A stretch of DNA of 64,000 nucleotides from an uncultured Gammaproteobacteria bacterium (GTDB lineage Bacteria > Pseudomonadota > Gammaproteobacteria > Ga0077536): assembly GCA_942490995.1 (NCBI GenBank), contig CALOBG010000021.1:91388-155387 (forward strand). The letters are read 5' to 3'. Positions 25,033 through 43,681 of this stretch are shown piece by piece. Numbering within the stretch: the stretch's first letter is position 1; each line of letters starts with the position of its first letter. A model generated the notes under the pieces. That model ran no database searches. It saw only the letters and a program-made list of their open reading frames with translations, and had not been told where the DNA came from. Both the position numbers and the translations under genes were made by a program.

Positions 25033-27477
25033 TCAAACGGAATCCAGCAGCTGGGCCAGGCGGCGCGCCAGGGCCGGCGCGTTTTCGCTGCTGATGGCAT
25101 CGCCGCTGTCATGGCCCGGCGCGGCCAGGATTTCAACGTCACTGCCCAGTACCGCAGGATCGCGCATTATCGGCGCGCCACCGGCCTCCTCGGCTGCGTC
25201 GCGCGCCGTATGCAGAACCACGATACGCCGCGCATAGGGGCGTGGCTGGTAATTCCTGGTCGCCGCGAGGTTGGATGCCGTCACGATGTTCAGTCGCAGC
25301 TCGGTGCGGGCGCCGTAGAACGGGTCACGATGGCGAATTTTTTCACGCGCGAGAGCGATTTTTCCGGCCAGCCAGGCACGCCTGCCAGGGCCGTCAAGGC
25401 GGCGTAACTCGGCCATGTAAAGACGTATCCGCCCAAGTACGAAGCGCACGCGAATGCCGAGACCGGTCGGCGCACTGCTCACCGTGTGCGCGGCCGGACG
25501 AGCAAAAAACGGGTCCATCAGGATCAGCAGCTGTGGCGCCCGCCCGGCCTTGTCGAGTCGATGCGCCATCTCGAACGCGGCCGCAGCTCCCCAACAGATA
25601 CCCAACAGCGCAAATGGTCGTCCATCGAGGTCGGGCATCGCGGCGATGAATTCGTCGGCGATCGACTCGATCCGCGTCAAGGCCTGACCCTGACCATCCA
25701 GTCCTTTGCTTTGCAGCCCGAAAAACGGCTGCCCGGGACCGAGTGCGCGGGCCAGTGCCTCCAGGCTGACGACATTTCCACCTACCCCCGGCACCACGAA
25801 CAGAGGCGGCCGCGAACCGCGCGGCTGAATCGCGACCAGCACCGAAGACGGCAACTCCGGTTGTTCCAGCAGGCGCAGCAATTTACGGATGCTGCCCGCT
25901 TCAAACAGGATCGACAGCGGCAGACTGCGGCCGATGACCGTTTCCATCTCGCCGAACACCAGCGCGGCCTGCACGGAGCTGCCGCCGAGGGCAAAAAAGT
26001 CGTCGTCGATACCGATCCGTTCGAGGCCCAGCGCGGCACGCCAGATTTCGCATAGCCTTGTCGCCAGGTCAGACAGATCCGCGGCGGCCGGCACCGCTAT
26101 CTCGGGCTGAGCCGCCGACGGCGGCGTCAGCAGGGTGCGCGCGTGGCGCAGCACCGGTTCGGCTTCGAGTTTGGCCAGCAGCGTAGCGAGCGTGGCGTCG
26201 CCGACTTCGACCAGCACGGCGAAAACCCGCTCGAGCAGATCGACACAGGCCTCGGCCAGCGCCGCACCGACCACGGCTGTGTCGTACACCGCGCTGATTT
26301 GTAGCGCCCCATGTGATTCCGCGATAAACAAAGAGAGCGGGAACGCATTGTCACTCGGGCTTGCGATCTGCTCGATCACGAGATCGTCGCTGCGGCGGGT
26401 CTCCGTACCCGGCGCGTGCAGCACCAGCAGGACATCGAATAGCGGCGTATCCAGCGGTACCCCGCTGGCGCGCTGAACGTCGGCCAATGACAGGTATTCG
26501 TATGGCTGACGCGCGCTGGCAGCGGCGTGCAGGTCCCGCAGCCAGGCGCCAAAATCTACATCTTGGTCGAGGGTGAAAAACACCGGCACGTTGTTGATGA
26601 ACGAGCCCATCGTCCGCTCGATATTGCGCACCCCTGGCGGCCGCCCCGATACGGTGAGCCCGAAGCAGGTCTCACTGCTATTGGCGAGCTTTGCGAGGGC
26701 GATAGCGAGCGCCGCCTGGATCACTACTGCAAAGGTCGTGCGCTGGCTGCGGGCGATCGCGGCCAGCGCCGCCGTGGCCGCTGCCGGCAGCCGGCGGCTG
26801 AGCGAAGGCTGGCCGTCACGGGCATCGCCGTCACGCCGCTCGGCTCGCCAGAACAACAACTGCGGGCGTCGTAAACCTCTCCCCACCGAGACCCAATAGC
26901 GCTCGGCAGCCGCGCGATCCTGATTCTTCAGCCACGCTATGTAGTCGCGATAGCGCCCGGGTGGCGGCAGCGCCGCACCGCGCTGCGCGTAACATGCGAA
27001 CAACTCCTCGAACAGGATGTCCACGCACCAACGGTCGAGGATCAGGTGGTGGCGGGTCCAGATCAGGAGCCAGTCATCCGCGCCGGTCCGCAGCAGCGTC
27101 AGGCGCATCAACGGCGCTCGGCGCAGATCAAATAGCTGCCGCCGTTCACCTTCGTAGTGCGTCGCCAGCGCCCGTTCGCGCTCGGCGTCGGCGAGGACGC
27201 TGAGATCTTCGTACTCAAATGGCACGGTGACCTTATTGCGGATCACCTGCACCGGTTGCTGGACCCCTTCCCAGACGAAGCCCGCGCGCAGGATCTCGTG
27301 TCGCGCGAGGAGCTGCTGCCACGCGTCGTGAAAGCGCTTTACATCGAGTTCGCCGTGGATGCGGTAGCGGAATTGATTGACCAGCACGTGCGAGTCGGTG
27401 GCCGCGAGCGTATGCGTCAGCATCAAATGCTGCATGGGCGACAGCGGGTATATGTCGTCGATATTTTTTTGGGGCAT
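25033..27477 (-). CDS. NRPS termination protein: condensation domain - PCP - thioesterase, with a Cys in the TE nucleophile position (GICWG) and no A domain.
   Basis: C motif HHLILDRWC (aa ~143), PCP FFALGGSSVQA (aa ~495), TE GxCxG LLGICWGAAAAFEMA (Cys628, codon at 25594-25596). 814 aa. Confidence 0.85.
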   Translation of the reverse strand: MPQKNIDDIYPLSPMQHLMLTHTLAATDSHVLVNQFRYRIHGELDVKRFHDAWQQLLARHEILRAGFVWEGVQQPVQVIRNKVTVPFEYEDLSVLADAERERALATHYEGERRQLFDLRRAPLMRLTLLRTGADDWLLIWTRHHLILDRWCVDILFEELFACYAQRGAALPPPGRYRDYIAWLKNQDRAAAERYWVSVGRGLRRPQLLFWRAERRDGDARDGQPSLSRRLPAAATAALAAIARSQRTTFAVVIQAALAIALAKLANSSETCFGLTVSGRPPGVRNIERTMGSFINNVPVFFTLDQDVDFGAWLRDLHAAASARQPYEYLSLADVQRASGVPLDTPLFDVLLVLHAPGTETRRSDDLVIEQIASPSDNAFPLSLFIAESHGALQISAVYDTAVVGAALAEACVDLLERVFAVLVEVGDATLATLLAKLEAEPVLRHARTLLTPPSAAQPEIAVPAAADLSDLATRLCEIWRAALGLERIGIDDDFFALGGSSVQAALVFGEMETVIGRSLPLSILFEAGSIRKLLRLLEQPELPSSVLVAIQPRGSRPPLFVVPGVGGNVVSLEALARALGPGQPFFGLQSKGLDGQGQALTRIESIADEFIAAMPDLDGRPFALLGICWGAAAAFEMAHRLDKAGRAPQLLILMDPFFARPAAHTVSSAPTGLGIRVRFVLGRIRLYMAELRRLDGPGRRAWLAGKIALAREKIRHRDPFYGARTELRLNIVTASNLAATRNYQPRPYARRIVVLHTARDAAEEAGGAPIMRDPAVLGSDVEILAAPGHDSGDAISSENAPALARRLAQLLDSV

Positions 27478-27606: not shown

Positions 27607-29208
27607 TTGAATCTCAGCATCCAACACGGCTTCGCAAGCTTGCGCCGGCACCCGTTCGTCGTACTCAGCGGCGAAGTGGCGTTGCTGTTGATCAGTTTTG
27701 TCGCTATCGAACGGATAATTTTCTACTTCGCGCGCCTGCCGCCAAGCGCCTACGGTGAAGCGCATCTGACCCTGGCCGTCCTTCGCCACGCCGACCCGCT
27801 GTTCGGCGCCGCGCTGATGCTCGCCTTCCTCGGCTGGATGCGCTACGGCGGCGCGCCGCGGCGCTGGACGACGATCGTCGGCGGCGCTCCGATCCGTGCC
27901 TGCGTCGTACTTATATGTGCGCTGTTGGCGTGGTCGCTGAGCACTTATGGGCATAACTATTTTTATGATCAGGCCTACGCCATCGATCGCGTATTGCTGC
28001 TCGCACTGGCGGCACTGGTAGCCTGGCGTCCAGGGTTTGTATTCCCGTTTCTGCTGCTGAGCGTTGCCATGCATTGGCAAATCATGCAGCCATCGCTGGG
28101 CAGCGGTTCGTATCTCAACCACACCCTGCAACTGGTGCACGTCGTTGCACTGTTTGGCGCCAGCCTGTTGATCTACCCGCTGCTCGAACGGCGCTACGCG
28201 GATCGGTTCTGGCTGTTTGTCTGTTGCCTGGTCGCGGCGGTTTACTGGGAACCCGGCATCAGCAAGGTGGGCATTGGCTGGCTCGACTATGCAGGCCTGC
28301 ACTTCATGCCGCTGGCGGCCTATGCGCATGGTTGGCGCAGCGCGCTGGCGCCCGAGGCGATCGTTGAATTCGCGAATCTGTTGACGGCGTTCGACACCCC
28401 CATGCGCATATTTGTCCTCGCCATCGAACTCGGCTGCATCGCCTTTCTTGCCCACCGTTTGTGGTCGATCGCACTGCTGGGCCTGGTCATGGTTTTCCAT
28501 CTCGGCGTTTTTGTCCTGTACGGCTACTTGTTCTGGACCTGGATCGCGCTCGACGCCATCCTCATCAGCGTACTCATAGCCGATCTAAGGGTCGCGCGCA
28601 TCGCCATCTACAGCCGAGGCCACCTGCTGCTGTCGATGCTCCTGATCGGCACTGCGGGGTATTGGTGTCAGCCGTCCAGTCTGGCCTGGTTCGATTCGCC
28701 ACTGAGCTATACCTTTCGCTATTTTGGGGTCGGCGACAGCGGTGTTGAATATGAAGTCCCGCCGCGCTTCTTCGCGCCCTACGGCGATGCCTTTACGATG
28801 GCGAACTTCTCCTACCTCATTAATGAGCACAAGGTTCTGGTCAGCCCTTACGGGATCGCCAACCGCGCGCGCATCGGCGGCCTGCTCGCGGCACGCGACG
28901 CCGCCGATATTTTCCGACTCGAGAACGAACTCGGCGCGAACCGCTATGATGCCGCACGCGCCGAACAATACTACGATTTCCTGACCCGCTACCTCGAGCA
29001 TTACAACCGTCGACAGCGGCACTTCGATGCGCAGCGTTACGCGCCGCCACCGCAGTTCTGGAACCACCCACGCGGCCGGGTCTACACCGGACAGGAGGCG
29101 CTGCGCGAGCTACAGGTGGTGGCGTACACCACCTTCTTTGACGGTCAGACCCTGAGCGTTATCCGGCGTTCGCCGCTGCGAACGCTGCAGCTTTCGCGCG
29201 CCCCGTAA
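27607..29208 (+). CDS. Polytopic integral membrane protein of unknown function (≥9 predicted TM segments plus a ~160-aa C-terminal soluble domain).
   Basis: Many hydrophobic helices (…FVFPFLLLSVAMHWQIM…, …LGLVMVFHLGVFVLYGYLFWTWIALDAILISVLIA…). Divergent from the C-T-TE gene, inside the NRPS island. No confident family match. Confidence 0.5.
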   Translation: MNLSIQHGFASLRRHPFVVLSGEVALLLISFVAIERIIFYFARLPPSAYGEAHLTLAVLRHADPLFGAALMLAFLGWMRYGGAPRRWTTIVGGAPIRACVVLICALLAWSLSTYGHNYFYDQAYAIDRVLLLALAALVAWRPGFVFPFLLLSVAMHWQIMQPSLGSGSYLNHTLQLVHVVALFGASLLIYPLLERRYADRFWLFVCCLVAAVYWEPGISKVGIGWLDYAGLHFMPLAAYAHGWRSALAPEAIVEFANLLTAFDTPMRIFVLAIELGCIAFLAHRLWSIALLGLVMVFHLGVFVLYGYLFWTWIALDAILISVLIADLRVARIAIYSRGHLLLSMLLIGTAGYWCQPSSLAWFDSPLSYTFRYFGVGDSGVEYEVPPRFFAPYGDAFTMANFSYLINEHKVLVSPYGIANRARIGGLLAARDAADIFRLENELGANRYDAARAEQYYDFLTRYLEHYNRRQRHFDAQRYAPPPQFWNHPRGRVYTGQEALRELQVVAYTTFFDGQTLSVIRRSPLRTLQLSRAP

Positions 29209-29247: not shown

Positions 29248-29925
29248 TCACGCACCGGGATCGCTTTCGAGACCGTCGAGCATTGCGGCGATCTCGCTGA
29301 TCTGGGATTCGTCGAGGTCGATCAGGGGTTCGTCGGCAGCAACGCTGTCGGGGCCCGCCTCGCTGGTGGCGGCGGCCTGTGCGGCGATAGTGGGGTGGTC
29401 AAAAAACTGCTCCGGCGACAATTTCAGGCCCTGCGACTGCGCGCGCGACAGGATACGAATGCTCAGCAGCGAGTCGCCGCCGAGTTCGAAAAAATTATCG
29501 TCGACACTGACCTCGTCGATGCCGAGCACATCGCACCAGATCTGTGCCAGCAGGCGTTCGGCGCGGGTGGTCGGCGCCGTACCTGTTTCGCTCACGTTCA
29601 CTTCAAGTGCGCCGGCCAGAGCCACTGCGGCGCGACGGTCGAGTTTACCGTTGGCCAGACGCGGCAGGGCGGTAACCGCGAGAAACTGGCGCGGCACCAT
29701 GTACTCGGGCAACCGCTCGGTGAGATGCGCGGTGAGTTCGCTCGCCTGCGGATGCCGCTCGGCGCGCGCGACGAAACACGCCACCAGCCGTGCGCTGTCC
29801 GGCGCCTGCGCAAGGGTGTGCTGCGTGATCAGTGCGCCGAGCAGACGCCTGCGTTCCGGCGCCAGCTGTCGCAGCCGCTCCGCCACACTTCGAGCAGAGC
29901 CCTTGCCGCTTGAGGTAACGCTCAT
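29248..29925 (-). CDS. NRPS fragment: C-terminal A-domain subdomain (motifs A9-A10) plus PCP.
   Basis: …LVACFVA…LPEYMVPRQFLAVTALPRLANGKLDR (A9/A10), then PCP FFELGGDSLLSI. Its ATG overlaps the stop of the upstream methyltransferase ORF (ATGA). Confidence 0.75.
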   Translation of the reverse strand: MSVTSSGKGSARSVAERLRQLAPERRRLLGALITQHTLAQAPDSARLVACFVARAERHPQASELTAHLTERLPEYMVPRQFLAVTALPRLANGKLDRRAAVALAGALEVNVSETGTAPTTRAERLLAQIWCDVLGIDEVSVDDNFFELGGDSLLSIRILSRAQSQGLKLSPEQFFDHPTIAAQAAATSEAGPDSVAADEPLIDLDESQISEIAAMLDGLESDPGA

Positions 29926-30713
29926 TTAATCGCCCTGACCACAACCATTGACCGCGCCCACCAGGCGTCCTGCACGTCCTGCGGAATATCCAGCGCGTCT
30001 ACCCGCGACAGGTGGATGGCGCTGAAATGTTCGAACAGCCGGCGCTGGTGACCGCGACTCAGCGAATCGATTTCGTTGGACAGATAGGTGAAGCTGCCGC
30101 CAGGATGCAGGTGGGCCGCGGCGTGGGCAAAAAAATGCTCGGCGAAAGTTGTACTGGCAGCGATCTGTTCGATGAACTCGTCTTCGTTCAAGGGGTAGGT
30201 GTGAAAAAAAATCCCATCGAATGCTCCCAATTGCGGCAGAACGTCCTGCCACATGCCGCCGAGCATCTCGATTGCTCGGTCAGGATAGCTATCGCGCCAG
30301 CGCTGAAATCGCCCGATGATATGCTCATTGCATTCGATAATCGTGTGGGTACTAACGCCGCAATCCTGGATCAGGGCCGAGGCAATCCCACGGCCGAAAC
30401 CGATTTCCAGGATATCGCCGTGACTGACCGTCACCGCGTCGGCCATCGCGCGCATCAACGGGATCTGCCAGTCTTCCATGATCTGCTCGTCGCTCAGTTC
30501 AGCCTGCGCGCGGTCCGCGGTGACCAGCTTATCGCTGCCGGCCACGAGCTCGCCCGCCGTGCGGTCCAGCGCGAGCAGGTTATCGGCCAATTCGCTGACC
30601 GCCCGGTTGAGCAGCCAGTTGCGCTGCGCGTCGCGTGGCGGACGGATAAAATCCTCGCGTTTGATCTCGAGGCTGATCGCAAAATCCCGCGTCTTTTTGT
30701 AGCGTCTGGTCAT
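29922..30713 (-). CDS. SAM-dependent methyltransferase of the guanidinoacetate N-methyltransferase (GAMT/RMT2-like) fold.
   Basis: QIPLMRAMADAVTVSHGDILEIGFGRGIAS…THTIIECNEHIIGRFQRW…MWQDVLPQLGAFDGIFFHTYPLNEDEF aligns closely with mammalian GAMT (…RVLEVGFGMAIAAS…HWIIECNDGVFQRL…[29 protein letters not shown]). ATGA overlaps at both ends. Confidence 0.8.
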   Translation of the reverse strand: MTRRYKKTRDFAISLEIKREDFIRPPRDAQRNWLLNRAVSELADNLLALDRTAGELVAGSDKLVTADRAQAELSDEQIMEDWQIPLMRAMADAVTVSHGDILEIGFGRGIASALIQDCGVSTHTIIECNEHIIGRFQRWRDSYPDRAIEMLGGMWQDVLPQLGAFDGIFFHTYPLNEDEFIEQIAASTTFAEHFFAHAAAHLHPGGSFTYLSNEIDSLSRGHQRRLFEHFSAIHLSRVDALDIPQDVQDAWWARSMVVVRAIK

Positions 30714-33577
30714 GTTTGCGCCCGGCTCGTCGAAGTCTGCTCGAATGCGCCAAGGTCACTGAGTGCGGCAGCCACTTCTATTTCGGTGAGTCCCTCAACC
30801 CGCTCCAGCAAGGCGGATACGATTTCATCTGGCAGCGCTGTCAGCGCGGTCTCCAGCTTTTCCATGTCGCCGTCCGTAATCGGGGCCAGACTTGCACGAT
30901 CGGCCACGAACACCATCGCTTCCGCGACGTCCGCGTGCTGCTGCAGCGCCGCTTCGACTTCTTCCGGTTCGATACGAAAGCCACGTACCTTGACCTGGTG
31001 GTCGATACGCCCAAGAAACTCGAAGCGGCCGTCGCGCAGTTGGCGAACCCGGTCGCCGGTCCGGTAGAGGCGCGGATCCGGCTCGGCTCGGAACGGATTG
31101 TCGATGAAGTTCTCAACATTGCGCGGGTCGTCGCCGACATAGCCGGCGGCGATGCACACGCCTCCTATCAGTAACTCGCCCTCGGCGCCGAGGGGCACCG
31201 GCCGTAGCTGCGCGTCGACGACGTAGGTGGAGACGTGGGGCAGCGGCCTGCCGATGGTGACGCGGGTAGCAGCGCCGTCGGCGGTGAGCTCCGCCATCGT
31301 TGCCCACACCGTCGCTTCGGTTGGCCCGTACTCGTTGTACAAAGCGGTGTTCGGCAGTTGCCGGCAGTGCTCGAGCTGCAGCCGCGCCGGACATGCCTCG
31401 CCCGCAACGATAACGCTACGCAGGTCCGGCAGCGCGACGCCGCCGAGCTGCTCGACAATGAGCGCGTGCAGGCTTGGCAGGCACAGCACATGGGTGATCC
31501 CCTCACTGGCGATGCGTGCAACCAGGCCGGCCATGTCCTGCTCGGCCCGCGCGCGCGGCAACACCAGGGTGCCACCGGTGGTCAGCGTCCAGAACAGACC
31601 GGCCACCGAGCTGTCCGTCGCCAATGACGACAAAAGTAGAAACCTGGCCGGATCATGACCATAAACCTGGCTACGCGCCGCTGTCGCAACCTGTAGCTGG
31701 CGGTGAGAAATCATCACCCCTTTGGCAGCGCCGGTGCTGCCCGAAGTGAACATCACGTAGGCCAGGGTGTCGGCGTCACTGGCCACCACGGCCGCCGCCG
31801 CGGCCGGCGAAGCAGGCGCTGTATCGGTGCACAGCGCCTGCCACGGTGGCGGTACATGCGCGGCTGCGACGGAGGTCGTCACGACCACGCCGGCCTGACC
31901 ATCCGCAGCGGCGAGCGTCGCCAGCAGGGCCGCGATGCGCGCTGGTGGGTGCGACGTATCCAGCGGTACGTAGGCGCCTCCGGCAAACAGGATCGCAAGG
32001 ATCGCAACAATCGCCTCGCTATCGCGCGCCATCAGCACCGGCACGCTGTTGCCTGCGGCGACGCCACGCTCGGCAAGCGTAGTGGCCAGCACCGCAGCGC
32101 GTTCGACAAGTTCCGCGTAGCTGAGCTCGCCGCGTTCGTCGCGCACGGCAATCGCCTGCGGTGTGCGCAAGGCTACCTCGACAATCCGCTCATGGATCCC
32201 GCCGCGAACCGAAGTCGATGCCGCGGGCGGCAACGCGGGCGCAAGCAGCCGCGCCTGTTCGTTGGGACTACACGGCGGCGCCTGCTTGAGTGGTTGCGCC
32301 ATGCCGGCGTTCATGAATGCCAACGTAGCGATGACGTGCTGCAGCAGCGACTCGACGAACTCGTCGCCGAACTTCGCGCGATCGTAGACCGCGATGAGTT
32401 CCAGTTCGGCCCCGGGCACGGCAAGCAGGGCAAAAGGATAGTGGCTGAATTCGCGGTAGTTTTCCTCGCTCGGCGCCAGTGCCGCCCCCCCGCCGTCGCC
32501 GGCGGCGGCAAAATTCTCGACCACCAGGATGGTGTCAAACAACGGTGTCCCCGGCGCCACCGCACTCCATTTCTGGATCTCGGCAAGCGGCGTCTGTTCA
32601 AATTGACGCGCCGCCAGGTGTGCTGCCTGGATCGCATGCAGGTAGTCACCCAGACTGGCCTGCGACGAGATGGCGATCCGTTGCGGCAAGGTGTTGATGA
32701 ACAGGCCGACGATCGATTCCGCGCCGTGCAGGTCGGCGGGGCGGCCGTGACTGGTCGTGCCGAAGACGACGTCGTCACTGCCGGCGTGGCGAGCGAGTAC
32801 CCACGCGTAGGCGCCGGCGAGCATGGTGTAAAAAGTCAGCCGTTGTTCGCGCGCCAGCCTCTGCAGGGCTTGCCATCGCTCGCCGTCGAGCACCTCGCAG
32901 CGTGTCGCCCCGGCGCCTGCCGGGCCCGCGCTCGTGGCCTCGGATCCGGCATCGACGAGCCGCGTAGGTGCTGCGAAACCATCCAGTGCCGAGCGCCAGT
33001 AGCTGTGCGCGGCCGTGTGATCCCGCTGCTCCAGCCAGCGCACGAATGTTTCAAAGGCCGGCGCCGCCGGCGCGCGCGCTGACGATCCATAAGCCGCGGC
33101 GAGCTCGTTCAGGACCAGGCGAGCCGACCAGCCGTCAACCACGAGGTGGTGGAAGCTCCATAGCATGCGCCACGAGTCCGCGCCGAGACGGAACAACGCA
33201 ACGCGCAGCAGCGGTGCCTGTTCGAGTACGAAACCGCGCGCCCGGTCAGCGTCGAGGAAAGCCGCGAAACGAGCGCTCTGGTCCGCGGCCGGCAGGTCGC
33301 TCCAGTCCTCATCGTGCCACGGCAGGTCGACCTGCCGGCGAACCAGCTGCAGGGGTTTTTGCCGTCCCTCCCAGCTGAACAGGGTACGCAGGGCATCGTG
33401 GCGCTGAACGATCCCGCACCAGGCTTCGCGCAGACGTTGCGGGTCGATAGCCTGCTCGTAACGACAACTGTACTGGTCGAAGTAGACGCGCTCATCGGGC
33501 CGGCGCAGGGTGTGGTAGAGGATCCCTTCCTGCATCGGGGTCAGGCGATAAATCGCCTTGATGTTGCTGTCTGCCAT
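30710..33577 (-). CDS. NRPS fragment: condensation domain + A-domain core (motifs A1-A8), ending just after A8.
   Basis: C: HHLVVDGWS. A: LAYVMFTSGSTGAAKG (A3), YNEYGPTEATV (A5), YRTGDRV (A7), GRIDHQVKVRGFRIEPEEVE (A8), then HADVAEAMVFV. The probable start is MADSNIK at 33577 (ORF-track Met at 33628). Confidence 0.8.
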   Translation of the reverse strand: MADSNIKAIYRLTPMQEGILYHTLRRPDERVYFDQYSCRYEQAIDPQRLREAWCGIVQRHDALRTLFSWEGRQKPLQLVRRQVDLPWHDEDWSDLPAADQSARFAAFLDADRARGFVLEQAPLLRVALFRLGADSWRMLWSFHHLVVDGWSARLVLNELAAAYGSSARAPAAPAFETFVRWLEQRDHTAAHSYWRSALDGFAAPTRLVDAGSEATSAGPAGAGATRCEVLDGERWQALQRLAREQRLTFYTMLAGAYAWVLARHAGSDDVVFGTTSHGRPADLHGAESIVGLFINTLPQRIAISSQASLGDYLHAIQAAHLAARQFEQTPLAEIQKWSAVAPGTPLFDTILVVENFAAAGDGGGAALAPSEENYREFSHYPFALLAVPGAELELIAVYDRAKFGDEFVESLLQHVIATLAFMNAGMAQPLKQAPPCSPNEQARLLAPALPPAASTSVRGGIHERIVEVALRTPQAIAVRDERGELSYAELVERAAVLATTLAERGVAAGNSVPVLMARDSEAIVAILAILFAGGAYVPLDTSHPPARIAALLATLAAADGQAGVVVTTSVAAAHVPPPWQALCTDTAPASPAAAAAVVASDADTLAYVMFTSGSTGAAKGVMISHRQLQVATAARSQVYGHDPARFLLLSSLATDSSVAGLFWTLTTGGTLVLPRARAEQDMAGLVARIASEGITHVLCLPSLHALIVEQLGGVALPDLRSVIVAGEACPARLQLEHCRQLPNTALYNEYGPTEATVWATMAELTADGAATRVTIGRPLPHVSTYVVDAQLRPVPLGAEGELLIGGVCIAAGYVGDDPRNVENFIDNPFRAEPDPRLYRTGDRVRQLRDGRFEFLGRIDHQVKVRGFRIEPEEVEAALQQHADVAEAMVFVADRASLAPITDGDMEKLETALTALPDEIVSALLERVEGLTEIEVAAALSDLGAFEQTSTSRAQT

Positions 33578-33590
33578 ATGCCCGGCGTCC

Positions 33591-36500
33591 CTACTCGCCA
33601 AACTCTGCGAGCACGCGGTCGAGTTCACCCTGGTCGACGTCGGCGGCAGGGAAATCCGAGGGCGTCAGGGCCGCGACGGCGCCGCTCGCGGCAAGCTCGA
33701 TGATGGCGCCCAGTTCGCCAATGACAGCGCCCGCGAGGTGCTGGATGGTCGAAGGCCGATAACAATCAGCAGCATAGGACCAGTCCAGCCGTAGTCGACC
33801 GTCAAAAATGTACGCATTGATTTCGAGCAGGTAGGGACGCGGTCCGGTAGCAGCCGTTACCGCGCGCAGCGGCCCCGACAGGCGCACACGCGCGTCACCG
33901 CGCGTAGCCCTGTCCCATTGGCCGAGATAATTGAACAATACCGGCGCAGAACCGGCACGCGAGACGCGCTCAGCGCCGTAATGAAGCAGGTTGTATCCGG
34001 CGCCGTGGGCGGGCACCGCACGCAGCTTTTCCTTGACCTGCCTGACGGTTTCAATCAGCGTCTCGCCGCTGCGACACTCAAACAACACCGGGTAGATGCT
34101 CGTGAACCAACCCACGGTGCGGGTCAGATCCATACCTTCGACCAGGGCTTCGCGGCCATGGCCTTCGAGGTCGAATTTCAGCAGCGACCCGCCGTGCCAG
34201 CGCGCCAGCACGCGAACCACGCCGGCAAGCAGGACTTCTGGCACCTGGACACGCCAGCTCGCCGGCACCTGATGGACCAATGCCGCGGTCTGTTCGCGAT
34301 CGAGCCTGCTCGTCAAGCGTGTACTGCTGGCATAGTCGTTCACGCTTTCGGGGTAATCGCAGCGCAGGGTCATGACACTGGCATCAATCTGTGCCCAGTA
34401 CTCCGCCTCGGCTGGCCCGGCGCTGCCCGCGTGCTGCGCCGCCAGCGCCAGCGCCCAATCCGCCACCGCGGTGGTTTTGCGCGGTAGCGTCACCGCCGCG
34501 TGGGCTGCCAGCTGCTGGCACGCTCGCTCGAGGTCATCAAGCAGTATCCACCATGACACGCCATCGATGAGCAGGTGGTGCACGGCAATTACCAGCAGAG
34601 AAGCCGGTTGATCGGCGCCGCGTGGCAGCCAGCGCAACTGCACCAGCGGACCGCGTTCGATATCCATCGTGCCGTTCATTGCGTCGATCAGGGCATCGAG
34701 ATCGCTGGCGCTTTCTTCTCCCGGTGCCGGGCCGGGTATCGGCGTCGCCGCGACGCTCGGCGGGTCTATACACTGCCGCCAACCGTTGGCCCTGCGCTCG
34801 AAACGACTGCGCAGGACATCATGATGGGCCACGACCTGCGCCCACGCCTGGGTCAGCACCGTAACCTCCAGACCCGCGTCGACTTCGACCACGGCAACCT
34901 GACTCAGCGCTGGCGGCGGGTCCTCAGCGAGTTCGAAAAAGCGCCGTTGCATCGGCAGCAGCTCAACCTCACCTTCGACAGGTCCCTGTGTTGCGGACGT
35001 CGTGGGAACGTCGCGGCATACCGCGGCCGCCGCGGCCACGGTCGGAAAGTCAAACAGATCCTGCGGCGTCAGTTCGAGGCCCGCGGCCCGGGCTCGCGCG
35101 ACAATCTGAATATTGAGAATCGAGTCGCCGCCGAGGTCAAAAAAATTGTCATTGATGCCGATGCGGGCAAGACCGAAAACTTCACACCAGATGCCGGCGA
35201 GCAGGTGTTCGTTACGGCTGACCGGCGCGACAAATTCTGTATCCAGACCGGTGCGGGCATACTGCGGCGCCGGCAGGCGTGCGCGATCGAGTTTGCCATT
35301 CCCGGTCAACGGCACGGCCTCCAGCCGTACGAAATGGCGCGGCAGGTATTCCGACGGCAATCGCGCGCCGAGGTGCTCCAGCAGGCGGCCGCGATCCAGC
35401 TCGTCATCGGCGACGTAATAAGCGATCAGCTCGATGTGCCGACGGGTCGCTGCGGACGCTTCTTGATGGTGGTAGCCGATAGACGCGAGTATGCGTCTGA
35501 CGTTTTCGATGTTGATATCGTCATCGAGTTCGGCGAGGGCGGCGTTGCGCTCCTTGTGGCCGAGCCTCACATCCCAGCTATAAGGCAAGGCGTAGTTGTG
35601 ATGCCGGCGCTCGGTTTTGTGTACGTGGATGCCGGCCTCATTGATCAGACAATTTGTCGAACGCCCGGTGTCCGCCGGACGGACCCAGGGCGCGCCGTGC
35701 TGCAGATAATCGAGCATGTCACCCAGGGTCGCGTCGCAGTAGCGGTAGAAATCGACAAACTTGATTTCCTCGAACACGCGATCGGATCGGAACAGCGAGA
35801 CGTCGAGCGCCGCGGATACCGCGTCGTGCATGCGATGATAAATCTTGCGTGCTTCGATGATATTGCGATCGATTTCAGCAGGATCGTAAATTTTCTGCCG
35901 AAACTGATCGGCGACCCGGGTCTCGAAGATCTGTCCGCGCGAAAGTCCGGTAAAGATGTGGCGTATGCCGCGTTCGTGAGCGAGATTCATCGACAGCGTG
36001 TATATGGTCTTGAAGCAGCCATTGCAGACATTGCTGTGACGCTTGAGGCTGTCGACGAAGATAGCGTCCATCGCGGGCGTGGTGGCACTGACCAGTTCGA
36101 GTCCGAGTTTATCGACCACCCGGCGGATGTTGTCTTTCGCCCCATCGGAGATGTAGCCGTTGTCGAGGGTAAAGACCAGCGGCGTCAGACCGAGATCGAC
36201 AAGCTGGCACAGCGCGTAGGTACTGTCCTTGCCGCCGCTCAACAGCATCATGCAGTCCGGCGTGCGCGGTGTCGCTGCCCGCACTTCGGCAACGATGTTC
36301 TCGAGGTCCTGCTGGTCGCCGAAATAGCGCATCGCCTGTTCGCGCTCGCGGGCGAAACGGCGGCAGATGCCACACACCCCGGCGCCGTCGAGATCGGCAT
36401 CGGGATGATTGGAGGCGAGACCGCAATGCACGCAGTACTCGATTTCCTGCGCCCGTGCTTCGCGGTCGTCGGCAATCACCACCGCTTCACGCAGCCCCGG

Positions 36501-39134
36501 ATAAGCGGCGAGGACGCTTTCGATTTCGCCCAGCTCGATCCTGATCCCGTTGACCTTGACCTGTTGATCGATGCGTCCAAGATATTCGAGCCGGCCGTCG
36601 GCGTTCCATCGAGCCAGGTCGCCGCTGAGATACATACGCCCACCACGATTGAACGGATCGTCAACGAAGCGGGCCGCGGTTTCCTCATCGCGGCCGAGAT
36701 AACCCAACGCGACCCCGGCGCCGCCTATCGCGATTTCGCCAGCGACACCGCGCGGCTGCAGACCAAGCCTGCTGTCCAGAACGTAGATTGTCGCGCCGTC
36801 AATCGGGCGGCCTATCGGTACCGAGATATCCGTATCGGCATGCGGGTCGAAACGATGGATCATGCATCCGACGGTCGCCTCGGTCGGCCCGTACTCGTTG
36901 TAGATCTCAATCTCGTCGTTGAAATATTTCGAAACCGTACGCGCAACATCGGTTTTCAGGTCGTCGCCGCCGAGGATCATGACCCGCAGCCGCGAATGAG
37001 TCAGATCCATCGCTTGCAACAGCGCCAGGTGCGCGGGCGTAAGCTTGATGATATCGGCGCGGTTGTCCTCGATCACCCGTCGTAAGACGATGTCGCGGCC
37101 GCCCTCGAGTTCCGGGTAGACCAGTACCCGCCCGCCGCTCAGCAACGGCAGGAAACACGTCGTTACCGTCAGATCGAAAGCCATGGCCGTGAACAGGGGA
37201 AAGGTCAGCTGCGCGCCGCGCACATACTGACGCTCCGCCCAGTCGAGATAATTGACAACATTGGCGTGGGTCACGGCAACGCCTTTCGGAGCACCGCTCG
37301 ACCCCGAAGTGTAGATGACGTAGACACGATCGTTGGCCGTTACTACAGGCGCCGGATTGCTATCGGGACGCCCCGCCGCGGCGCGCGCGAAATCCGCGTA
37401 GACCTCGGTCGCCCAGCGTTCGTCACGCGGCTGGCCCGCGGCGGAATCGACCAGCCACAGTCGCGCGCCGGCGTCCGCAACGCAGTGCGCGCGACGCGCG
37501 CCGGGATCGTTCGTGGACAGCGGCAGGTACGCCGCACCGCATTTGATCACCGCTAGCATTGCGATCACTGCCTCGGCAGAGCGGCGCATGCCAAGCGCAA
37601 CCACGTCGCCCGCGCCGATGCCGCGCGCACGCAATTCGTGCGCGAGACGGTTGGCGTCGCTGTTCAAGCTGCCGTAGTTCCATACCACGCCGTCACATTC
37701 GAGCGCCGGCAAATCACGATGGCGCGCTGCACAGTGCTCGAAACGCGCGCCCAGGGTCAGCGTCCGATCTGCGGAGGTCTGGATCCGCCCTCGCGCGACG
37801 GAGAGCAGGGCGCGGCGGGCCGCGGCGTCAAGGAGATTTACGGCGGTTATCGAACCTTCAGGTTGGTCAACAAATGCGTCAATGATGGCGAGCAGGTGCC
37901 GCCGCGCGGCATCCGCGTCATCGACACTGAAGCTGTCCTCGTTGAGATCGAGAAACAGCCCGAAAACGTCGGCCTGGTCGAAATCGTGCACCTGCAGACG
38001 CAACACGTGGTTGCGATCGCCATAGCCCGCATGCACCCACTCGGCGGTGGTCGGATGCGCATCGAACTCGCCGAACTCGGCGGTGATGTAATTCAGTACC
38101 ACGTTAATGCCGCGGACCTGGTCAAAACCGCTTGCGCCGGGCTGCGCGTTGAGCAGGAATGCCCGTGCCTCGCGCGCGACCTGCTGGTACACGCTCGCGA
38201 ATGTGTCGTCGGCGCTGAGGGTGAGCGTCAACGGGAAGATTTCGATGAACAGGCCAGCGGTCTGCTTGAACGACTTGCTCGATCGATTGTGCGCCGGCGT
38301 GCCGATCACCACCTCACCAACGCCGGTGATCCGGTACAGGTAGACCGCGAGCGCGGTAAAAAAAATCTGAAAGCGCGCCAGGTCGCTGTTGAAGGCGCGA
38401 AACGCCGGCGCTTCGGCGAGCGCTCGAATCGCTCGCGAGCGGTCTGCACCAAGCGCTACCGCGTAGCGCCGGGTACGGCCGCTGCGGGTCGGCGCCGGGC
38501 GCCGATAAAACTGCGGCACCGGACCGCTCAGATCGCCCTTGGCGCGCCAGTATTCGCGCGCGCGCCGGCACGCCCGCGAGTCCTGGTGACGTCGTTCGTA
38601 CTCGACATAGTCGCGGTAGGGAGGCAGCGCAGGCGTCGGCGTTTCGAGGCCGGACCTGGCGGCCTGATACAGCGCGCTCATATGGCGGAAAATCACCGAT
38701 ACCGACCAGGCATCGGTGACGACGTGGTGTTGGTTGAAATACCACACCGATTCCTGCGCGGAAAGGTACAACAGTGCGGTATCGAACAGGCGACGCGCGT
38801 AGTCGAACGGGCGCCGCGCGCGGGCCTCCAGCCATGCGGCCAGGGCCTCGCGCGGATCACGGCGGCTGGAGAAGTCGACGGTTTCGAGGGCGAAATCCAT
38901 CGTTTCGAGGACGCGCTGGCGCGACTCCCCGGCGTCTTCGTCGATGACCGTACGCATCGCACCGCAGCCCTGCAGCAGGGCGCGAAACGCCCGCTCGAAG
39001 GCATCGGCGTCAAGCGCCGTACCGATATGAAAGGCAAGCACCATGTTGTACAGCGGGTCGTCAGGCTGCAGTCGCTGCCCGGTCCAGATCAGTTCCTGCG
39101 CTCGAGTCAGCCGCATGGACGCTTGATCTTCCAT
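33591..39134 (-). CDS. NRPS: C - A - PCP - C, with the A domain interrupted between A8 and A9 by a ~340-aa TtcA/TtuA-like PP-loop domain.
   Basis: C1 HHVVTDAWS; A3 YTSGSSGAPKG; A4 FDLT; A5 YNEYGPTEATV; A8 GRIDQQVKVNGIRIELGEIE; insertion aa ~899-1237; A9/A10 LPSEYLP…NGKLDR; PCP FFDLGGDSIL; C2 HHLLIDGVSW. 1847 aa. Confidence 0.9.
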   Translation of the reverse strand: MEDQASMRLTRAQELIWTGQRLQPDDPLYNMVLAFHIGTALDADAFERAFRALLQGCGAMRTVIDEDAGESRQRVLETMDFALETVDFSSRRDPREALAAWLEARARRPFDYARRLFDTALLYLSAQESVWYFNQHHVVTDAWSVSVIFRHMSALYQAARSGLETPTPALPPYRDYVEYERRHQDSRACRRAREYWRAKGDLSGPVPQFYRRPAPTRSGRTRRYAVALGADRSRAIRALAEAPAFRAFNSDLARFQIFFTALAVYLYRITGVGEVVIGTPAHNRSSKSFKQTAGLFIEIFPLTLTLSADDTFASVYQQVAREARAFLLNAQPGASGFDQVRGINVVLNYITAEFGEFDAHPTTAEWVHAGYGDRNHVLRLQVHDFDQADVFGLFLDLNEDSFSVDDADAARRHLLAIIDAFVDQPEGSITAVNLLDAAARRALLSVARGRIQTSADRTLTLGARFEHCAARHRDLPALECDGVVWNYGSLNSDANRLAHELRARGIGAGDVVALGMRRSAEAVIAMLAVIKCGAAYLPLSTNDPGARRAHCVADAGARLWLVDSAAGQPRDERWATEVYADFARAAAGRPDSNPAPVVTANDRVYVIYTSGSSGAPKGVAVTHANVVNYLDWAERQYVRGAQLTFPLFTAMAFDLTVTTCFLPLLSGGRVLVYPELEGGRDIVLRRVIEDNRADIIKLTPAHLALLQAMDLTHSRLRVMILGGDDLKTDVARTVSKYFNDEIEIYNEYGPTEATVGCMIHRFDPHADTDISVPIGRPIDGATIYVLDSRLGLQPRGVAGEIAIGGAGVALGYLGRDEETAARFVDDPFNRGGRMYLSGDLARWNADGRLEYLGRIDQQVKVNGIRIELGEIESVLAAYPGLREAVVIADDREARAQEIEYCVHCGLASNHPDADLDGAGVCGICRRFAREREQAMRYFGDQQDLENIVAEVRAATPRTPDCMMLLSGGKDSTYALCQLVDLGLTPLVFTLDNGYISDGAKDNIRRVVDKLGLELVSATTPAMDAIFVDSLKRHSNVCNGCFKTIYTLSMNLAHERGIRHIFTGLSRGQIFETRVADQFRQKIYDPAEIDRNIIEARKIYHRMHDAVSAALDVSLFRSDRVFEEIKFVDFYRYCDATLGDMLDYLQHGAPWVRPADTGRSTNCLINEAGIHVHKTERRHHNYALPYSWDVRLGHKERNAALAELDDDINIENVRRILASIGYHHQEASAATRRHIELIAYYVADDELDRGRLLEHLGARLPSEYLPRHFVRLEAVPLTGNGKLDRARLPAPQYARTGLDTEFVAPVSRNEHLLAGIWCEVFGLARIGINDNFFDLGGDSILNIQIVARARAAGLELTPQDLFDFPTVAAAAAVCRDVPTTSATQGPVEGEVELLPMQRRFFELAEDPPPALSQVAVVEVDAGLEVTVLTQAWAQVVAHHDVLRSRFERRANGWRQCIDPPSVAATPIPGPAPGEESASDLDALIDAMNGTMDIERGPLVQLRWLPRGADQPASLLVIAVHHLLIDGVSWWILLDDLERACQQLAAHAAVTLPRKTTAVADWALALAAQHAGSAGPAEAEYWAQIDASVMTLRCDYPESVNDYASSTRLTSRLDREQTAALVHQVPASWRVQVPEVLLAGVVRVLARWHGGSLLKFDLEGHGREALVEGMDLTRTVGWFTSIYPVLFECRSGETLIETVRQVKEKLRAVPAHGAGYNLLHYGAERVSRAGSAPVLFNYLGQWDRATRGDARVRLSGPLRAVTAATGPRPYLLEINAYIFDGRLRLDWSYAADCYRPSTIQHLAGAVIGELGAIIELAASGAVAALTPSDFPAADVDQGELDRVLAEFGE
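35430..36440 (-). other. Embedded PP-loop ATP pyrophosphatase (adenine-nucleotide alpha-hydrolase) domain of the TtcA/TtuA/Ncs6 type inside the NRPS A domain.
   Basis: CxxC-x16-CxxC (CVHCG…CGIC, aa 901-924), P-loop SGGKDS (aa 966-971; nt 36222-36239 verified), CNGC (aa 1037/1040) and a distal Cys1133 at TtuA-like spacings. Confidence 0.6.
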
Positions 39135-39140
39135 GTCCGT

Positions 39141-39383
39141 CTAGTCGTGGCTGCGCTGCGCGACGTAGGCGGCGATGGTGTTGATCGAACGGAAGTACTC
39201 GATACTGAAATCCTGTGGCGGGATCTCGAACCCGTAGGTCTCCTCGAGGTAACCGACCAGGCGCACCATACCGAGCGAATCGACCACCCCGTCATTGAGC
39301 AGCATATCGTCGTCGCCGACCACGTGCGGACCTTCGAGCAGCTCGTCGTGGATAAAAGCAGCGATGGTGTCCCTGATATTCAC
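39141..39383 (-). CDS. Stand-alone peptidyl/acyl carrier protein.
   Basis: 80 aa, phosphopantetheine-attachment serine in …DGVVDSLGMVRLV…. Sits 13 nt downstream of the stand-alone A domain. Confidence 0.75.
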   Translation of the reverse strand: MNIRDTIAAFIHDELLEGPHVVGDDDMLLNDGVVDSLGMVRLVGYLEETYGFEIPPQDFSIEYFRSINTIAAYVAQRSHD

Positions 39384-39396
39384 GCTCGCTCCTCGC

Positions 39397-40980
39397 TCAG
39401 ACGCGGTTGGTGGTTGTGGACGAATACGCTTCGCGCAGCGCGCGGCGGTCGATTTTACCGCTGGAGGTGCGCGGAAACACCTTGCGCAGCTCGATGGAAC
39501 TCGGCACGGAATACCACGGCAGCGCGCGTTTCAGTTCGCTGGTCAGATCGCCGCTATCGACCCCGGCGTCGCCTTTGAGCGTTACGGCGGCGTGGATCTC
39601 ACCGCCGCCATCGGCGTCGCTTACGACAAAAACGCCAGCCTCTTCGACCACCGCGATGGCGCTCAAGGCGGCCTCGATTTCGTCAAGTTCCACTCGATAA
39701 CCACGCACCTTGACCTGGCGATCCTTGCGCCCGAGAAACCATAGCAGACCGCTGTGATCCTCACGCACCACATCACCGGTGCGATAAAACACTTCCTCGT
39801 GCCCGGCAATGCGCTCGCGACGATAAAACGCGCGTTCATTGAGTTCGGGTCGGCCCCAGTAGCCGCGCATCATGGTCGGTGAACGCACCAGCAGTTCGCC
39901 GTCGACCCCCGGCGGTACCTCGCGGTCCTGCTCATCGACGATCAGGGCCTCAGCGGTGTCGGCAATCGGGCCAATCGGGATGCTGTCCGCGTCCATGGCC
40001 AGATCACGAACCGTGTAATGGGTCACGCCATTGACTTCCGCCGGGCCGTAGATGTTGTCAAAGCTGACCCACGGCAGAACCTCACGTAATGCGCGCAGGT
40101 GTTTGAGCGGCATCGGTTCGCCACCGAATATCGCCCAGCGCAGCGCGCTCAGATCACGTTGTTCCAGCGCACCGCGCAGGAGCAACTGGATCAGCGCGAA
40201 CGGCACGGTATACAGCACCGTAATGCCCTGATCCTGGATCAGCTGTGAATAGCTCGCCGGCAAACGCGTGTAAGCCTCGGGAACAATCGCCGTCGCGCAG
40301 CCTGCCAGTGCGGCCGAAAAAAAATCCATGATCGAGAGATCGAAATGCAGCGGCGCGTGGTTGCTGAGCACGTCCTCGGCGTGGAACCGATACTCGTGCG
40401 CAGCCCAGCGTGCGAAACTCAGGCCGCTGGCATGGGTGTGCATCATACCCTTGGGCGCACCGGTCGAACCGGAGGTATACATGATGTAAGCGAGGTCCTG
40501 CTCGATAATTTTGCGCCGTGGCGGCGCGGCAGTCAGCGCGCCGCGAACTTCGCTCGGCGTGTAGTTACGCAAACCCTCGCCCGTCGCAGCGGCCAATCCG
40601 ACGGTCGCCTCGAGTGCGCATCCTTGAGCGATCTGGGCCAGCCTGCTTGCTTTGTGTTCCCCTGTAACGACGCAACGCATGCCACAGCTGCGCGCGATTT
40701 CGGCGCTGCGGGCCGGCGGCGCGGCCGGGTCGAGTGGCACGTATGCTGCGCCCGCCTTCATGATCCCGTACAGGGCGACCGCCGTGTCGATGCATTTGTC
40801 CATGTAAATGCCGACCGGTTCGCCGCGCGTCACACCGGCATCGACGAGGATATGGGCGAGCGCATTGGATCGCGCGGCCAGGTCACCGTAGCTCAGGGAT
40901 TGCTCGAGAAACTTGATCGCCGGTCGTTCGGGGGTGCGTTCCGCGACGTAATCTGGGGCATGGTAAATAAGCGTTATCAT
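39397..40980 (-). CDS. Stand-alone NRPS-type adenylation enzyme (amino-acid-AMP ligase) that loads the adjacent carrier protein.
   Basis: A1 LSYGDL, A2 LKAGAAYVPLD, A3 YIMYTSGSTGAPKG, A4 FDLS (Asp235 present), A5 NIYGPAE, A7 YRTGDV, A8 GRKDRQVKVRGYRVELDEIE, A10 SSGKIDR. Confidence 0.85.
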   Translation of the reverse strand: MITLIYHAPDYVAERTPERPAIKFLEQSLSYGDLAARSNALAHILVDAGVTRGEPVGIYMDKCIDTAVALYGIMKAGAAYVPLDPAAPPARSAEIARSCGMRCVVTGEHKASRLAQIAQGCALEATVGLAAATGEGLRNYTPSEVRGALTAAPPRRKIIEQDLAYIMYTSGSTGAPKGMMHTHASGLSFARWAAHEYRFHAEDVLSNHAPLHFDLSIMDFFSAALAGCATAIVPEAYTRLPASYSQLIQDQGITVLYTVPFALIQLLLRGALEQRDLSALRWAIFGGEPMPLKHLRALREVLPWVSFDNIYGPAEVNGVTHYTVRDLAMDADSIPIGPIADTAEALIVDEQDREVPPGVDGELLVRSPTMMRGYWGRPELNERAFYRRERIAGHEEVFYRTGDVVREDHSGLLWFLGRKDRQVKVRGYRVELDEIEAALSAIAVVEEAGVFVVSDADGGGEIHAAVTLKGDAGVDSGDLTSELKRALPWYSVPSSIELRKVFPRTSSGKIDRRALREAYSSTTTNRV

Positions 40981-41006
40981 GATCGTCGTCTGTCCGCCGC
41001 CGGTTT

Positions 41007-42155: not shown

Positions 42156-42164
42156 GGCGGCGCG

Positions 42165-43472: not shown

Positions 43473-43681
43473 ACTAGTGTAGCAGCGGCTTTCCGTGCGC
43501 GACCGGTGCTGCCACGGTAAATTTGTGTGAACTTTCCCATAATTACCCGTCAGACATTGCGATCGCGGCGCAACGATGACATCGTGACGCGTGCGCTGGC
43601 AGCCGGGATCGACGACAACGGCGAACCACATACGGGCGCGCGGACACTCAACACAATGTATCCACGAAATCCGGCATCGTC

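Follow-up and report, generated by a model that had tools for sequence, protein, structure and literature searches.

The published catalogue of interrupted adenylation (A) domains in nonribosomal peptide synthetases (NRPSs) holds seven families and six M types, all of them contiguous; the layout is A2-M-A3 in TioN and A8-M-A9 in KtzH and TioS, and family 1 has backbone N-methyltransferases at the A8/A9 site (PMC8341866). An A domain divided between two proteins was described for the corallorazine synthetases Crz1 and Crz2 of Corallococcus coralloides B035 (Dreckmann et al. 2024, PMC11342130). Crz1 is a C-A-T-C-A-nMT protein (C, condensation; T, carrier; MT, methyltransferase) with a stop directly past the MT, and Crz2 is A9-A10-T-TD. 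The A2 and MT domains of Crz1 span 843 aa and were aligned to Lundy type I motifs (MT of ~420 aa), the MT makes N-methyl-Gly, and in vitro Crz1(C2-A2-MT) adenylated Gly solely with Crz2 added; the split A domain was described as unique (PMC11342130). Crz1/Crz2 is the closest known system to the module analyzed here, which is encoded by three open reading frames (ORFs a, b and c; Table 1) in a 64,000-nt stretch of DNA from an uncultured Gammaproteobacteria bacterium (GenBank assembly GCA_942490995.1, contig CALOBG010000021.1, positions 91,388 to 155,387; hereafter the window). In both systems the A domain is interrupted after motif A8, the chain stops at the end of the MT, and A9/A10 with a carrier open the next ORF; both also belong to lipopeptide clusters with an acyl ligase, an acyl carrier protein (ACP) and an acyl-CoA dehydrogenase. 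ORFs a, b and c probably constitute a naturally split, interrupted A domain that works as a non-covalent module of three proteins.

The window module differs from Crz1/Crz2 in several respects. Crz consists of two pieces, a form that was found in the window's relatives at loci L016, L018 and L019, whereas the window has three pieces with a free MT. The Crz MT is a canonical type I backbone N-methyltransferase and the Crz A2 domain activates Gly; the window MT is a 263-aa protein with the fold of guanidinoacetate N-methyltransferase (GAMT), and the window specificity code is His-type. The need for both proteins in adenylation was shown for Crz1/Crz2 and is predicted for the window module. Crz was called unique, whereas in the MT family of the window module the split is the general state.

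ORFs a, b and c are annotated as three separate genes in the public record of the contig. The ATG of ORF a begins 13 nt past the stop codon of the NRPS gene that precedes it, and the stop coordinates of the three ORFs are 2, 0 and 1 mod 3, so that they occupy three frames. The two exact ATGA overlaps between them, reported in a preliminary description of the window, were read again from the sequence and stand.

The position of the cut was determined with the Pfam profile AMP-binding_C (PF13193). The end of ORF a matched profile positions 1-23 (16 bits, below threshold) and ORF c positions 27-76 of 76 (30 bits); when the end of ORF a was joined to ORF c in silico, a complete match was obtained (1-76, 54.3 bits). 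The cut therefore lies within the small C-terminal subdomain, which is divided exactly between ORF a and ORF c. It falls in the loop between two strands, exactly the place at which interrupted A domains carry their embedded domains. Motifs A1-A8 precede the insert and A9-A10 follow it, the two parts making up one A domain, and the insert is an S-adenosylmethionine (SAM)-dependent methyltransferase, as in the A8-M-A9 layout; the parts are carried by three genes, not by one polypeptide as in contiguous interrupted A domains, both in the window and in 13 orthologous loci. The preliminary description had proposed this arrangement of an A domain interrupted at A8/A9 and encoded as three polypeptides, and the division of PF13193 bears it out. 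Its comparison with TioN and KtzH holds for KtzH, the TioN insertion being of the A2-M-A3 layout (PMC8341866). ORF b sits genetically where embedded MTs sit in ordinary interrupted A domains, and probably physically too.

ORF a had been thought to end right after A8. It runs through A8 and the strand VAEAMVFV and then continues for ~60 residues, including a structured helical tail of ~50 residues. In an AlphaFold2 model of ORF a residues 660-955 the A core was confident and the strand after A8 was modelled as coil, because its partner strand is missing from ORF a; tail helices were placed at residues 902-913, 917-928 and 932-949, with a mean pLDDT per 10-residue block of 74, 91, 92, 83 and 57. 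Likewise, A9/A10 and the peptidyl carrier protein (PCP) domain are both present in ORF c as described, but do not open it: a leader of 44 aa precedes A9.

Homologues of ORF b were collected at E up to 1e-5 (1220 in all) and the best 120 were listed; these were all stand-alone proteins of ~263 aa with 59-69% identity. Thirteen distinct loci were fetched, from Woeseia, Granulosicoccaceae, Kriegella (a genus of Flavobacteriaceae), Gemmatimonadaceae, Rhodocyclaceae and other metagenome contigs. The same three genes were present, unfused, in 13/13 loci from several phyla, which answers the question of the preliminary description whether orthologous clusters carry one fused gene. Where flanks were present the gene order was acyl ligase, ACP, C-A(insert)-T-C (~1860 aa), C-A core, MT, and a gene that opens with AMP-binding_C and PP-binding. 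Sizes ranged from 941 to 977 aa for the C-A core protein and from 263 to 267 aa for the MT. The junction between A core and MT was an ATGA or GTGA overlap in 8/13 loci and a gap of 10-65 nt in 5/13; the junction between MT and ORF c, compared in 11 loci, was an overlap in four and a stop-start abutment or a gap of up to 58 nt in seven. All three frames of ORF c relative to the MT (0, 1 and 2) were seen, spacings over the two junctions ran from -4 to +65 nt, and stop codons were present in the gaps between genes. Overlaps of 4 nt, four in succession, were also found in the ATP synthase operon of locus L006. The ATGA motifs, treated in the preliminary description as the key signal, are thus ordinary operon punctuation, given the L006 overlaps and the variation of the junctions among orthologues; since the overlaps are not conserved, the meaningful signal is the conservation of the gene boundaries.

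These loci bear directly on two explanations that would deny the split. If frameshifts in sequencing or assembly had broken one C-A(MT)-T gene into three ORFs, both frame changes falling exactly on domain borders would be accounted for, and error-prone long-read assemblies do show frame breaks in the related clusters L009, L017 and L018. This is countered by 13 loci from different phyla and projects with the same three genes, their own start codons and gaps of up to 65 nt, by the stand-alone state of the 263-aa MT in the best 120 of 1220 homologues, and by the observation that errors in bad assemblies make fusions, not splits. Programmed frameshifting at the ATGA sites, raised as an alternative in the preliminary description, would give a single interrupted-A-domain polypeptide and would fit the stop/start overlaps exactly at the window's junctions. 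No slippery heptamer was found at either ATGA junction of the window, however, a TAA directly precedes the ATG of ORF c in its frame, and fused A-MT relatives (below) still stop at the MT end. As junction spacing and relative frames vary in orthologues, with gaps of 10-65 nt or abutment and all three frames, no common recoding mechanism is possible. The retention of three genes with varying junctions in 13 loci excludes both sequencing error and a shared frameshift mechanism, and the earlier judgement that random indels were unlikely is upheld. Neither explanation retains more than a negligible probability.

For the wider family of the MT, cluster representatives were searched exhaustively and without profiles; 146 relatives were found at E up to 1e-30, and the window domains were mapped onto the best 150 representatives. 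In 103 of these an adenylation core lay upstream of the MT on the same polypeptide, in the architectures A-MT, C-A-MT and C-A-T-C-A-MT and in proteins of up to 3546 aa; 15 were full-length stand-alone MTs. The chain ended within 17 aa past the MT in 101/103 of the A-core-MT fusions (within 3 aa in 82), and the two fusions that did not end at the MT are fragments. The gene after the fused A-MT starts with AMP-binding_C and PP-binding in L016, L018 and L019, the last of which is a member of the window's own cluster family. No genuine MT-A9 fusion was found among the best 150 representatives, and a chimeric query (the C-terminal half of ORF b plus residues 1-110 of ORF c) gave 120 best matches all of 51% coverage or less. 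A break after the MT is therefore the rule in this family, since 101/103 fusions end there and no genuine MT-A9 fusion was seen. The break before the MT is an additional fission. With GAMT as the root of a neighbour-joining tree, which carries no support values, the window's stand-alone clade was nested among 60 fused and 6 stand-alone members.

Two apparent fusions across the MT/A9 border were rejected as products of frameshift read-through. In P0186 (MT-Asub-T) the last ~20 MT residues are out of frame before the Met of the downstream ORF, and in P0344 (A-MT-Asub-T), which comes from the fragmented assembly L017, the MT is spread over two frames. Error-prone long-read metagenome assemblies (L017 8001-10412, L009 and L018) fragment these NRPS genes, and surveys of architecture in this MT family must filter false read-through fusions such as P0344 and P0186.

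The segments that flank the cut are conserved as well. The tail motif L..AL..LP..EAE.LL.E.E is kept in both split and fused relatives, and the leader motif L(S/T)P.QR.LL was found in 13/13 downstream proteins, including those of the two-gene systems L016 and L018. The tail was acidic in 10/10 loci (net charge -2 to -13) and the net charge of the leader was positive in 10/13 downstream proteins. From this conservation and charge, the tail of ORF a and the leader of ORF c are candidates for a docking pair.

A third explanation accepts the three genes but not their cooperation: ORF a would be a dead relic with a truncated A domain, ORF b an ordinary tailoring enzyme, and the ORF c carrier would be loaded by another enzyme, for example the stand-alone AMP-binding protein encoded within the cluster. 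The last module of the cluster (C-T-TE; TE, thioesterase) is likewise without an A domain, so trans-loading must occur somewhere in the pathway. A relic is nevertheless improbable. Across phyla no A-core motif is lost and the code is tightly conserved, ORF c retains A9/A10 with the catalytic Lys, the halves rebuild the full AMP-binding_C profile, the stand-alone AMP-binding protein is without the NRPS A4/A5/A10 motifs, and Crz1/Crz2 shows that such halves cooperate.

The family of ORF b was set by sequence matches in the PDB, by fold search and by a precomputed assignment. By sequence the PDB match was rat/human GAMT (E 6e-24). Searched against the PDB with Foldseek, an AlphaFold2 model of ORF b (pLDDT 85) gave five best matches that were all GAMT (E 8e-15 to 2e-13), with the first match outside these five at 1.6e-8, ~6 orders of magnitude weaker; TM-scores to GAMT were 0.6-0.79. 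ORF b had no significant match when scanned locally with Pfam and NCBIfam, and the precomputed assignment is Pfam PF27704. The GAMT-like nature proposed in the preliminary description is thus supported by sequence and fold, while the profile search from which it had been expected was empty when run locally. A tblastn search of ORF b against 72,556 plasmids gave no match.

ORF b has the fold and SAM-binding core of GAMT (EC 2.1.1.2; PDB 1XCJ, 3ORH, 1KHH), with 29-32% identity over ~205 residues and the common motifs MExW.P.M, LE.GFG, IIECN and FDGI..xTYPL; the SAM motifs EIGFGRG, E127 and D166 were invariant in the methyltransferase alignment. Unlike GAMT, it has an N-terminal extension of 70 residues (beta-hairpin 2-17 and long helix 28-53 in the model), which is kept in fused relatives too, its C-terminal third differs (motif NEIDSLSR.HQR), and it stands in an NRPS context. 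The guanidino group is bound and deprotonated in ternary complexes of GAMT by residues E45 and D134 (rat numbering). On alignment to rat GAMT these residues are replaced in ORF b by Q83 and H171, both of which were invariant among 46 orthologues. Context and residues argue against ORF b making creatine from guanidinoacetate.

The specificity code of ORF a, read from the A4/A5 motifs and by alignment, is DSACIAEVW, and the tenth residue (K) comes from ORF c. DSALIAEVWK is a listed signature of His-activating domains (PMC12283262); the window code DSACIAEVWK agrees with it at 9/10 positions, and DSALIAEVW occurs exactly in orthologues L014 and L015. Where the A code was readable, 52/52 MTs of the Q/H type stood behind a DSAxIAEVW-type core (one with a variant at position 239), and the 24 MTs of the E/D type stood behind other A codes, 13/24 of them with E239 and/or D331. 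As the active-site pair of the MT tracks the A-domain code, which is unexpected for a backbone-amine MT, methylation of the side chain is favoured, and the MT likely methylates the imidazole ring of carrier-bound histidine.

A sister class of NRPS-fused GAMT-like MTs (P0159, P0183, P0208 and others) keeps E45/D134. The A codes in this class are varied, over half of them with acidic pocket residues (e.g., DVELIGAIT, DPEFIGHID), and the proteins likewise end at the C-terminus of the MT. Members of the sister class are candidates for methylation of guanidino or amine side chains. A guanidino group as the target of ORF b itself was hinted at in the preliminary description. Such a target, perhaps in an arginine-type residue, has in its favour the GAMT fold, with 29-32% identity to GAMT, and the retention of E45/D134 behind A domains with acidic pocket residues in the sister class. 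It is made very improbable by the replacement of E45/D134 with the invariant pair Q83/H171 and by the His-type A code, and this part of the preliminary description was given up.

The rival that carries most weight grants the assembly but has ORF b methylate the backbone alpha-amine, as canonical NRPS N-methyltransferases do and as GAMT does with guanidinoacetate, at its glycine nitrogen. In family 1 of the interrupted A domains the A8/A9 site is occupied by backbone N-methyltransferases (PMC8341866), and the Crz1 MT gives N-methyl-Gly. The fourth A domains of TioS and KtzH (Labby 2015, Lundy 2020, PMC8341866) share with the window the A8/A9 insertion loop and a SAM methyltransferase, which in the characterised cases acts on the carrier-bound amino acid; they differ in being single polypeptides, and their six M types are N-backbone, O- or S-methyltransferases, none of which is described as GAMT-like or histidine-acting. 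ORF b showed no sequence similarity to the solved TioS backbone MT: its sequence matches in the PDB up to E 1 were GAMT entries alone, without the solved TioS A-M-A structure, and this structure was not among the top 50 Foldseek matches of ORF b. The strict co-variation of the MT active-site pair with the A-domain code also speaks against a backbone target, as do the products of His modules with unusual MTs in the literature searched, which are ring-methylated only. Backbone methylation is accordingly rated unlikely, though not to the degree of the other rivals. By falling weight these rank as backbone methylation, a dead A core with trans-loading, a guanidino substrate, recoding and artefact, the last two being effectively refuted.

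The literature was searched for GAMT-like NRPS MTs, methyl-histidine NRPS MTs and split A domains, and only corallorazine, corramycin and evybactin were relevant. Module 3 of the corramycin synthetase ComL is C-A-MT-T-E (E, epimerisation) and activates L-His; its MT clusters with no known NRPS MT, and imidazole methylation was proposed (PMC10099666). Module 5 of the evybactin synthetase leads to D-His(3-Me), with an MT detected by BlastP alone and an E domain next (PMC11711294). In both, a His-activating module is combined with an unusual MT, a T domain and an E domain, the products carrying ring-N-methylated D-histidine. This resembles the Asub-T-E-like architecture of most ORF c orthologues, which consist of Asub-T and a condensation-type domain with a match to TIGR01720 (672-752 aa; L011, L012, L013, L015). 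TIGR01720 is a marker of epimerisation domains. The ORF c of the window (225 aa, as in L009) is without this E-like domain after the carrier, unlike the corramycin and evybactin modules, and the stereochemistry of the residue may therefore differ between variants of the cluster. Corramycin module 3 is described as contiguous while the window module is split; the corramycin and evybactin MTs may belong to the GAMT-like family. By this analogy the corramycin and evybactin literature lends plausibility, not identity, to ring methylation in the window.

Several points weigh against the reading of ORFs a, b and c as a three-protein module that loads and ring-methylates histidine. The assignment of histidine in the window is a match at 9/10 code positions; methylation may fall on either nitrogen of the imidazole (N-pi or N-tau) or on the alpha-amine, and free histidine may be methylated before activation. 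With regard to docking, 3/13 leaders are not basic and one tail has a charge of merely -2, the proposed pairing being drawn from conservation and charge. Fused forms more distant than the best 150 representatives or the best 120 chimeric matches could exist. If the corramycin MT is GAMT-like, then the break after the MT is frequent but not obligatory, module 3 being described as contiguous.

Under the three-protein reading the following course is proposed. ORFs a, b and c would be translated separately, coupled in the window by the ATGA overlaps, and ORFs a and c would complement each other to rebuild the small subdomain required for adenylation. The rebuilt module is predicted to activate L-histidine and load it on the carrier of ORF c, after which ORF b would methylate the tethered histidine, most likely at an imidazole nitrogen. 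The C domain of ORF a would then join the methylated histidine to the acyl-(Asn-type) intermediate of the upstream module, whose code DLTKIGEVGK we take to be Asn-type, and the chain would be handed to the C-T-TE protein. The cluster (window ~23.5-43.6 kb) is predicted to yield an acylated peptide that contains methyl-histidine and a residue derived from Asn.

A broader proposal, which we advance tentatively and to which we give rather less than an even chance, is that GAMT-fold MTs define a widespread class of A domains obligately assembled in trans, with a docking pair, a second fission and amidine-type side-chain N-methylation. In principle, the chain would always break at the C-terminus of the MT, possibly because the fold ends in a core strand and is unable to return to A9, and the acidic tail and basic leader would hold the subdomain halves around the MT. 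The second fission would have freed the MT in the window's lineage, and the Q/H type would act on the imidazole of histidine and the E/D type on guanidino groups. If this is so, the junctions would be natural, portable split points for NRPS engineering.

Experimental precedent for such splits consists so far of one system, Crz1/Crz2, in the simpler two-piece form. New here in comparison are the three pieces, the GAMT-like MT, the His-type code and the Q83/H171 pair that co-varies with the A code. A functional A domain split over two genes was reported as a unique oddity in 2024; the present data indicate that it is the rule for one MT family, with ~100 diverse protein clusters and over 1000 metagenome clusters of stand-alone MTs, and the three-protein version is stable across phyla. 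These loci are natural examples of a tolerated cut inside the small A subdomain, with candidate docking helices, and are relevant to the choice of split and fusion points in NRPSs. The Q/H-type MTs are proposed as an enzyme family for ring-N-methyl-histidine in non-ribosomal peptides, the sister class perhaps giving N-methyl-guanidino residues, and a testable link to the unexplained MTs of corramycin and evybactin is provided. With domain-based tools the MT is missed or mislabelled (as 'guanidinoacetate N-methyltransferase' or as 'class I SAM-dependent methyltransferase'), and parts of the module seem to be absent.

Table 1. Features of the split module and of neighbouring genes, in window coordinates.
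Feature	Coordinates	Strand	Description
ORF a	30710..33577	minus	955 aa; C domain + adenylation core A1-A8 + helical tail; NCBI-annotated 955-aa gene
Condensation domain, ORF a	32243..33556	minus	Pfam Condensation, residues 8-445, E 2e-80; HHLVVDG motif
Adenylation core, ORF a	31139..32176	minus	Pfam AMP-binding, residues 468-813, E 1e-65
A8 motif + helix + first strand of small C-terminal subdomain, ORF a	30896..31012	minus	PF13193 positions 1-23; first third of AMP-binding_C
Acidic three-helix tail, ORF a residues 902-949	30731..30874	minus	Candidate docking element; motif L..AL..LP..EAE.LL.E.E
ATGA stop/start overlap, ORF a/ORF b	30710..30713	minus	ATG 30713-30711 over TGA 30712-30710
ORF b	29922..30713	minus	263 aa; free-standing GAMT-fold SAM methyltransferase
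N-terminal extension of ORF b	30504..30713	minus	Not in GAMT; motif F..PPR..QRNWLLN
ATGA stop/start overlap, ORF b/ORF c	29922..29925	minus	ATG 29925-29923 over TGA 29924-29922
ORF c	29248..29925	minus	225 aa; basic leader helix + A9/A10 + carrier (T); annotated 225-aa gene
Leader of ORF c, residues 1-44	29794..29925	minus	Motif L(S/T)P.QR.LL; candidate docking helix
A9 (LPEYMVP) + A10 (NGKLDR, catalytic Lys) segment, ORF c	29626..29793	minus	AMP-binding_C residues 45-94 = profile 27-76
Carrier (PCP) domain, ORF c	29371..29553	minus	PP-binding residues 125-185; GGDSL serine
Upstream NRPS gene	33591..39134	minus	1847 aa; C-A-T-(E-like C); A code DLTKIGEVGK
Stand-alone AMP-binding protein	23556-25004	plus	482 aa
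Terminal module C-T-TE	25033-27477	minus	No A domain
Membrane protein candidate	27607-29208	plus	533 aa, ~10 hydrophobic segments; between ORF c and the C-T-TE gene
ACP	~39131-39400	minus	DSLG motif; lipo-initiation gene
Acyl-AMP/CoA ligase	39397-40980	minus	Lipo-initiation gene
Acyl-CoA dehydrogenase	41007-42155	minus	Upstream lipo-initiation genes
HupE/UreJ_2 membrane protein	42165-43631	minus	Upstream group, 39131-43631
Long antisense ORFs	30012-31067, 31703-33082, 34575-37085	plus	351-836 aa, over NRPS genes; no domain support

The A domain of the upstream module has a contiguous insert of ~330 aa at the equivalent A8/A9 loop (window ~35460-36446, minus strand), and this is an internal contrast to the split module. 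The insert carries CxxC...CxxC and an SGGKDS PP-loop and gave weak matches to N-acetyl sugar amidotransferase (PDB 8wex, E 0.065), GMP synthase and Pfam QueC (E 0.0099), the faint QueC match being seen on the orthologous genes of L017/L018 as well. PMC8341866 lists no family of interrupted A domains with an embedded PP-loop ATPase. The PP-loop-like insert might serve side-chain amidation, or turn the side chain of Asn/Asp into a nitrile or an amidine.

The 482-aa AMP-binding protein looks like an acyl ligase and not like the missing A domain, since the NRPS A4/A5/A10 motifs are absent. A motif scan of the window revealed no MbtH-like gene. The long antisense ORFs over the NRPS genes are typical of GC-rich coding sequence, are best ignored and should not be taken as genes. 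The 533-aa protein had no Pfam or NCBIfam match; homologues of 39-46% identity adjoin the cluster in L009, L012 and L013, and in L019 an unannotated 534-aa gene lies at the same position. It is probably part of the pathway and may serve in export or membrane anchoring. Genes for HupE and the dehydrogenase also adjoin the cluster in L013, L017 and L019.

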